Shown: piece by piece, positions 1-727 of the stretch
Layout of the letters: each line of letters begins with the position of its first letter
Numbering within the stretch: position 1 is the first letter of the stretch
NCBI RefSeq assembly: GCF_003334405.1
Contig: NZ_QOWM01000055.1
DNA length: 727 bases
Source: Escherichia coli
Lineage (GTDB): Bacteria > Pseudomonadota > Gammaproteobacteria > Enterobacterales > Enterobacteriaceae
Direction: 5' to 3' (one strand)
Made by a program: the position numbers and the translations under genes
Notes under the pieces: model-generated
What the model saw: only the letters and a program-made list of their open reading frames with translations
What the model was told of the DNA's origin: nothing
Database searches by the model: none

Positions 1-684
1 ATCACAACTGATGCGATGGGTTGCCAGAAAGATATTGCAGAGAAGATACAAAAACAGGGAGGTGATTATTTATTCGCTGTAAAAGGAAACCAGGGGCGGC
101 TTAATAAAGCCTTTGAGGAAAAATTTCCGCTGAAAGAATTAAATAATCCAGAGCATGACAGTTACGCAATGAGTGAAAAGAGTCACGGCAGAGAAGAAAT
201 CCGTCTTCATATTGTTTGCGATGTCCCTGATGAACTTATTGATTTCACGTTTGAATGGAAAGGGCTGAAGAAATTATGCGTGGCAGTCTCCTTTCGGTCA
301 ATAATAGCAGAACAAAAGAAAGAGCCAGAAATGACGGTCAGATATTATATCAGTTCTGCTGATTTAACCGCAGAAAAGTTCGCCACAGCAATCCGAAACC
401 ACTGGCACGTGGAGAATAAGCTGCACTGGCGTCTGGACGTGGTAATGAATGAAGACGACTGCAAAATAAGAAGAGGAAACGCCGCAGAATTATTTTCAGG
501 GATACGGCACATCGCTATTAATATTTTAACGAATGATAAGGTATTCAAGGCAGGGTTAAGACGTAAGATGCGAAAAGCAGCCATGGATAGAAACTATCTC
601 GCGTCAGTCCTTGCGGGAGCGGGCTTTCGTAATCTTTCCCTGCTTTTTGTACTAAATAATTCGCATTTTATGTTTAAAAATTGA
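1..684 (+). CDS. ISAs1-family (H-repeat-associated) DDE transposase, C-terminal portion; 5'-partial, start codon upstream of window
   Basis: Seen in sequence: frame 1 is open from base 1 (ITTDA precedes the first ATG at 16) to TGA at 682..684, so the ORF runs off the 5' edge. The ATG at 16 is probably an internal Met, since the conserved 'TTDAMGCQ' block straddles it. Established knowledge, from memory: '[15 protein letters not shown]' (second catalytic Asp, codon 10..12) and '[44 protein letters not shown]' (catalytic Glu, codon 412..414) are characteristic of ISAs1/H-rpt transposases (DDE_Tnp_1-type). Full-length homologues are about 375-380 aa, so roughly 150 N-terminal residues are missing from the window. 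Confidence 0.85.
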
Positions 685-727
685 GATATTCCTTATTACC
701 TGAAGCTGTTTTTTATTGCTTATACAT
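1..727 (+). mobile_element. Fragment of an ISAs1-family insertion sequence (H-repeat-like element); right boundary not determinable from this window
   Basis: Inference from the transposase CDS filling 1..684. Elements of this family are about 1.2-1.4 kb with the transposase occupying most of the length, so the right terminal inverted repeat should lie within roughly 50-150 bp of the stop, either in 685..727 or just past the window. The left end is off-window, so the inverted repeat cannot be paired or located. Confidence 0.65.

Follow-up and report, generated by a model that had tools for sequence, protein, structure and literature searches.

Some stretches of the Escherichia coli chromosome are much poorer in G+C than the rest of it, and this locus raises the question of whether such a composition marks DNA that entered from elsewhere. 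The window (the whole stretch of DNA that was analysed, 727 nt long) had been estimated by eye in the first-pass annotation at roughly 40% G+C, with A/T-rich codon choices throughout its open reading frame, and a foreign origin had been suggested on the assumption that the host genome has a substantially higher GC content. Exact counting (A 241, C 125, G 169 and T 192) gave 40.44% G+C, in agreement with the estimate, and 100-nt windows ranged from 36 to 50% GC with no sharp internal boundary. Over nucleotides 1-612 of the reading frame, GC1, GC2 and GC3 were 50.0%, 33.8% and 41.7%, respectively, and the A/T-rich codon choices are thus borne out along the frame.

The K-12 genome has a GC content of 50.78% (PMC3032704, Table 1), and the host GC is indeed substantially higher, 50.8% for E. 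coli versus 40.4% for the window. Two stretches of MG1655, 89 kb in total, had GC contents of 49.7% and 51.5%, and 727-nt windows taken from a 50-kb RhsC-region locus outside the Rhs element had a mean GC of 52.1% (sd 4.9), with 2.2% of them at or below 40.4%. The comparison set consisted of 55 non-ribosomal, non-Rhs K-12 genes from the 89 kb, and the codon adaptation index (CAI) was referred to 33 genes (ribosomal-protein genes and those of EF-Tu, EF-G and RpoA). Total GC of the window frame (nt 1-612) was 41.8% versus 51.1% in the 55 genes, below all of them (z = -2.4), GC3 was 41.7% versus 54.1 +/- 6.2% (z = -2.0, with two genes as low), and CAI was 0.30 versus 0.40 +/- 0.10, with four genes lower. 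The deficit amounts to 10 points in GC and 12 points in GC3. Judged against a background sample of 89 kb only, the compositional deviation of the window is real and beyond local scatter; the deviation in CAI is modest, about 1.1 sd. The comparison of GC and codon adaptation that had been proposed therefore places the window below its host, and E. coli did not turn out to be a host of similar GC content and codon usage.

When 5,426 complete E. coli genomes were searched by Megablast, 5,343 matched the window, with a median of 5 and a maximum of 15 places per genome, and the best matches had 99.7% identity across all 727 nt. The best K-12-type match was ybfL (b0705), a pseudogene annotated as 'ISAs1-like element ISEc1 family transposase', with rhsC-ybfB-ybfO-ybfC-ybfQ upstream and ybfD-ybgA-phr downstream in K-12; the equivalent of the window in MG1655 is 737,329-738,056. 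The window is insertion-sequence DNA, made up of the 3' half of the ybfL copy of H-rpt/ISEc1 and the leader of the ybfD copy, at the distal end of the RhsC element (Table 1).

Table 1. Features of the 727-nt window (positions in nt from its first letter)
Feature	Position	Strand	Details and basis
3' half of H-rpt/ISEc1 copy (ISAs1 family), ybfL	1-642	+	Element positions 648-1290; GC 42.7%
Transposase frame, C-terminal 227 codons	1-684	+	Open at base 1, TGA stop at 682-684; ORF list and translation
GAT codon, putative second catalytic Asp, D172 (YhhI numbering), motif DAMGCQ	10-12	+	14-sequence alignment
G, versus A in K-12 and KL53 ybfL	264	+	Pairwise and paralogue alignment
GAG codon, putative catalytic Glu, E306, motif HWxVENxLHWxLD	412-414	+	14-sequence alignment
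GGG run, GGGG in reference copies	615-617	+	1-nt deletion by alignment
Right terminal inverted repeat	621-642	+	Paralogue similarity ends exactly after ...CCCTG
Non-coding left-end leader of next tandem H-rpt copy (ybfD, b0706)	643-727	+	Aligns with RhsB, RhsE and ybfL left-end interiors

The frame of the window matched the NCBIfam equivalog model NF033564 (transpos_ISAs1) with 201 bits (cut-off 70, E = 2e-59), residues 1-176 aligning with profile positions 141-314 of 314, and also matched Pfam DDE_Tnp_1 (E = 6.6e-16). Only the C-terminal 60% of the transposase lies in the window. In the alignment, the second Asp and the Glu of the DDE triad did not vary among 14 homologues, some with as little as 42% identity; the window starts downstream of the first Asp (D109, motif IDGK). 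The Asp codon is probably catalytic because the frame matches DDE_Tnp_1, and we likewise assign a putative catalytic role to the Glu codon. In K-12, ybfL is already interrupted by a stop codon upstream of the part that the window covers, so activity is not expected of this copy, and the ybfL copy in the window is a defective copy of H-rpt/ISEc1. In ET12567, a K-12 derivative, an IS4-like ISVsa5 (IS10-type) element sits inside ybfL, also upstream of the part covered by the window, so that the pseudogene is split in a strain-specific manner (locus L001, 10461-11669).

Scans of the window for other features gave little. Nothing in Rfam matched it at E <= 1, no terminator was found, and the promoter scan returned a single promoter-like site, on the minus strand, versus 1.6 expected by chance. 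The largest minus-strand open reading frame (345-584, 79 aa) most likely arose by chance; the minus-strand frames were all taken as such, being antisense within a strongly conserved transposase frame and without support of their own.

The ends of the element were set by aligning the K-12 paralogues and their flanks, namely those of RhsB (yhhI), RhsE (ydcC and yncI) and RhsC (ybfQ, ybfL and ybfD); K-12 has H-rpt copies in RhsB, in RhsC (three in tandem) and in RhsE (two). Similarity among the paralogues begins CAGGGAAAGATCA... and ends ...GCTTTCGTAATCTTNCCCTG, which gives an element of 1,291 bp for the RhsB and RhsE copies and 1,290 bp for the ybfL copy, with about 40% GC. Read as its reverse complement, the right inverted repeat is CAGGGAAAGATTACGAAAGCCC, and it matches the ybfL left end (CAGGGAAAGATCACGTAACGCT) at 17 of 22 positions; the right repeat overlaps the last transposase codons and the stop codon. 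In transposase, ends, length and copy number, H-rpt/ISEc1 was found to conform to the ISAs1 family. No direct repeat that could be a target-site duplication was seen beside the ends of the RhsB, RhsE or ybfL copies, perhaps because the insertions are old or because rearrangement came after insertion. ISfinder has an entry for H-rpt, and no transposition of it has been observed (PMC3032704).

Aligned with ybfL of K-12 and KL53, the window has two differences, at 264 and at 615-617. The A-to-G change at 264 is silent, in the third base of a Gly codon (GGG for GGA), and the paralogues yhhI and ydcC also have G at this position. The deletion at 615-617 shifts the frame five codons ahead of the normal stop (TAA at 630-632, ...LAGSGLS*), replacing the last five residues and adding 18 more as the frame runs on to the TGA; the last 23 residues of the window frame are a frameshift artefact. 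A 71-nt query spanning the deletion had no exact match in the 5,426 complete E. coli genomes, the best match being 98.6% identical. The deletion is either a private mutation of the source strain or a homopolymer sequencing error, and has no bearing on composition.

Downstream of the right repeat, the ybfD copy is joined directly to ybfL without its own first ~23 nt, including its left inverted repeat. This part of the window (643-727) has a GC content of 23.5%, and the ATG of ybfD lies 36 nt past the window end. The junction (window 621-727; locus L004, 22951-23092) was present in 1,411 of the 5,426 complete E. coli genomes. This head-to-tail fusion may have come, for example, from aberrant transposition or from a deletion between tandem copies.

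The surrounding RhsC element corresponds to 729.4-739.0 kb of MG1655 (locus L004, 14400-24000), and ends right after the ybfA terminator hairpin on one side and ~45 nt before the ybgA start codon on the other. For an empty-site query, the final 300 nt through ybfA were joined to the opening 300 nt of ybgA, and this composite was covered as one place in 1,310 of the 5,426 complete E. coli genomes. In two empty-site genomes, ybfA and ybgA were 100-101 nt apart, and the ybfA terminator hairpin led straight into the sequence that in K-12 lies ahead of ybgA. The flank alleles of these genomes are 99.2% and 93.5% identical to K-12, and the empty-site boundaries were identical in the two alleles even though they differ by ~6%. 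The whole RhsC element, ~9.6 kb with three H-rpt copies, is thus an island that is either present or absent between precise boundaries, by insertion or by deletion. Within the island the GC content is a mosaic, with 57-66% in the rhs core, 31-38% in the core tips with ybfB and ybfC, and 35-42% in the H-rpt copies, relative to 51% in the chromosome. This internal mosaic agrees with the classical Rhs literature.

H-rpt/ISEc1 as such is present in 98% of E. coli genomes and also occurs in E. albertii, E. whittamii and other Escherichia. Being near-universal in E. coli and present in its sister species, the element must have been acquired long ago. Carriage on plasmids was rare (30 of 72,556 plasmid records, among the 30 several multi-megabase ones that resemble mislabelled chromosomes), as was carriage by phages (2 of 50,697 phage records); plasmids and phages were set aside as transfer vehicles, since carriage is essentially absent.

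To place this composition within the ISAs1 family, we collected relatives with YhhI as the query and one genome per species. This gave 278 relatives, of which 80 loci were kept and 60 had at least 3 kb of flank; the GC of the flanks stands in for host genome GC at a local level only, several of the flanks (L012, L015 and L016) being low-GC islands in their own right. Over the 60 ISAs1-family loci, transposase-gene GC ranged from 35% to 58% and tracked flank GC (r = 0.48), gene GC was on average 1.2 points below flank GC (1.3 points when averaged per organism), and 38% of the genes were GC-richer than their flanks. An AT bias common to the whole family is ruled out as the source of the deficit, because gene GC follows flank GC over these loci. 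Distant ISAs1 relatives roughly match their hosts, at 35-58% GC.

The ISEc1 clade (at least 69% identity) behaves in another way. Every member has 39-43% GC, while the flanks range from 36% to 57%, and wherever the flanks exceed 46% GC the copies lie 6-17 points under them. The hosts belong to seven enterobacterial genera (Escherichia spp., Pseudocitrobacter, Entomohabitans, Cedecea, Enterobacter, Citrobacter and Erwinia). Since gene GC tracks the flanks family-wide and is constant in the ISEc1 clade, the deficit is peculiar to this clade and holds from host to host. Such a constant deficit looks like that of a lineage whose composition is foreign to the Enterobacteriaceae.

Outside the ISEc1 clade, the nearest relatives (54-58% identity) came from Endozoicomonas and Vibrio; their genes have 41-45% GC and their flanks 37-47%. 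Some relatives at 57-58% identity and 37-38% GC lie on 2.6-3.5-kb MAG contigs assigned to Sporosarcina, Bacillota, Planococcaceae and Flavobacterium (L072, L073, L075 and L076); if these assignments are real, the sub-clade at 57-58% identity crosses phyla, the contigs being too short for trusted binning. Within the clade, copies lie beside Rhs-core or YbfC-like coding sequences in Entomohabitans, Enterobacter, an Escherichia sp., Pseudocitrobacter and a Citrobacter MAG (neighbours at L013, 300-2870, 8655-9002 and 11180-11431; L026, 2708-5221; L011, 15695-17383; L008, 11252-11815; and L034, 1660-2223). With Rhs-like neighbours in other genera, the association of H-rpt with Rhs elements thus reaches beyond E. 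coli.

Intact ISEc1-clade transposases are under purifying selection (yhhI, L005, 7379-8515; ydcC, L006, 6817-7953; and the copies at L009 and L013). Between yhhI and its E. coli paralogue ydcC, dS was 0.05 and dN/dS 0.19; for yhhI and the E. whittamii copy the values were 0.28 and 0.09, and for yhhI and the Entomohabitans copy dS was about 2.2, which is saturated, with a dN/dS of 0.03. GC3 stayed at 37-41% across these comparisons, and a GC3 of 37% persists across the saturated divergence between E. coli and Entomohabitans. Purifying selection on an element whose transposition has never been observed would be compatible with rare transposition or with a function retained for the host. If the synonymous divergence arose inside the enterobacteria, the low GC3 would have been maintained there; if it arose elsewhere, several independent entries would be implied.

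The window is H-rpt/ISEc1 DNA with a low GC content common to its whole lineage, and it is probable that this lineage was introduced in ancient times from a donor of lower GC. H-rpt/ISEc1 is a 1.29-kb ISAs1-family element that has a single DDE transposase gene and is bounded by imperfect terminal inverted repeats of 22 nt, and the ~40% G+C belongs to the ISEc1 lineage in general and not to the copy in the window alone. This composition fits genomes of ~40-45% GC and not the enterobacterial hosts of 50-57% GC, which is consistent with an outside origin, and the lineage would have kept it since its entry. The foreign, mobile origin is favoured because of the insertion-sequence identity, the clean empty site and the clade-wide GC of 39-43%, and from these we infer horizontal transfer from a lower-GC donor. 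No donor was found in the one-genome-per-species scan, where the closest non-enterobacterial relatives were 54-58% identical.

The same composition could have come about in other ways. One of them is decay, in which the pseudogene ybfL has drifted toward AT as a dead gene; K-12 ybfL does have an internal stop and the window adds a frameshift, but the intact genes yhhI and ydcC are 95-99% identical to it with the same GC (41.5-41.8%) and GC3 (40.7-41.5%), and whole ybfL, at 42.0% GC, is not below them. Decay was rejected on this equal composition of the intact paralogues and is the least credible of the explanations. Hardly more probable is a low GC imposed by a transposase protein rich in Lys, Asn, Ile and Glu. 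It would account for a GC2 of 33.8% versus 40.2% in neighbouring genes; however, GC3, which is free of that constraint, is equally low (41.7% versus 54.1%), and homologues of the same fold and motifs in Oceanisphaera and Zobellella, at 49-54% identity, have 56-58% GC and a GC3 of 69-70%. The non-coding tail at 643-727 is lower still than the coding part. The protein constraint was rejected on GC3 and on these high-GC homologues.

A more serious alternative, though an unlikely one, is that the AT-richness is actively maintained in a resident element and not inherited from a donor, in which case GC is silent on origin. The candidate causes would be AT-biased mutation with weak codon selection in a barely expressed gene, or selection by H-NS-type silencing. 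Mutation in E. coli is AT-biased, and mobile and accessory genes are reportedly AT-richer, as a tendency, than their hosts (Rocha and Danchin 2002; Daubin et al. 2003). The persistence of a GC3 of 35-41% across synonymous saturation, with dN/dS of 0.03-0.19, speaks for maintenance, as does the near-universal presence of the element in E. coli, which makes it a long-term resident. A low GC3 that survives saturated synonymous divergence need not be a donor signature passively retained without amelioration; such a signature should have eroded if the divergence between E. coli and Entomohabitans happened inside the enterobacteria. On the other hand, the other ISAs1 members do not share this bias over the 60 loci, so that the mechanism would have to be specific to the clade, and maintenance is compatible with a foreign origin: it removes only GC as evidence, and the insertion-sequence identity and the empty site stand. 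We regard it as rather doubtful that the ISEc1 clade is a long-term resident of the Enterobacteriaceae whose ~40% GC (GC3 35-41%) is kept by an active process at 10-17 points less than in its hosts. If it is, the composition would point away from a fading donor signature and to a clade-specific force, for example selection for xenogeneic silencing, an Rhs-associated function taken on by domestication, or a low-GC reservoir, as yet unseen, that constantly re-seeds the clade.

Returning to an ancient introduction from a lower-GC donor, the decisive evidence is the insertion-sequence identity, the empty site in a quarter of the genomes and the constant composition of the clade. The GC argument flags atypical DNA, gives neither a date nor a donor, would not by itself have sufficed to show a foreign origin, and is the weakest of the supporting lines. 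The foreign origin suggested by the first-pass annotation is therefore supported, provided that the acquisition is taken to be ancient, and it is backed by these further lines as well as by GC. Mildly interesting is that the ISEc1 clade keeps a low GC3 over saturated synonymous divergence under purifying selection. Otherwise the window offers a textbook example of how a mobile element within an E. coli Rhs island can be atypical in composition, and the value of the analysis lies mainly in its correct annotation.

This DNA is already known, as reportedly is the argument from its low GC to a foreign origin, and nothing here is new. H-rpt is discussed nowhere in Jackson et al. 2009 (PMC2935791). 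The closest known system is the H-rpt/ISEc1 of the Rhs elements (ybfL b0705 and the start of ybfD b0706), with which the window shares the position, the right end and the tandem junction; it differs from all the complete genomes searched by the silent change at 264 and the 1-nt deletion in the G run. H-rpt was reportedly described together with the Rhs elements by the group of Hill in the early 1990s (Zhao et al. 1993; Hill et al. 1994), and the divergent GC contents of the Rhs components, H-rpt included, are said to have been taken as a sign of separate foreign origins. At the level of the ISAs1 family (prototype ISAs1 of Aeromonas salmonicida, and IS1358 of Vibrio cholerae), ISEc1 shares the single ~370-aa DDE transposase, the DAMGCQ and HWxIENxLHWxLD motifs, the ~1.3 kb length and the short imperfect terminal inverted repeats. 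It has only ~49% amino-acid identity to the Aeromonas representative (L036) and, unlike most members sampled, its composition is decoupled from that of its host. With the low-GC islands of E. coli in the sense of Lawrence and Ochman, the window shares the deficit in GC and GC3, the low CAI, the association with a mobile element and the polymorphism among strains; however, it is not a recent strain-specific acquisition, the insertion-sequence family being present in 98% of genomes, and the Rhs element around it is itself a GC mosaic, with 60-66% in the core and 31-42% in the tips and H-rpts.
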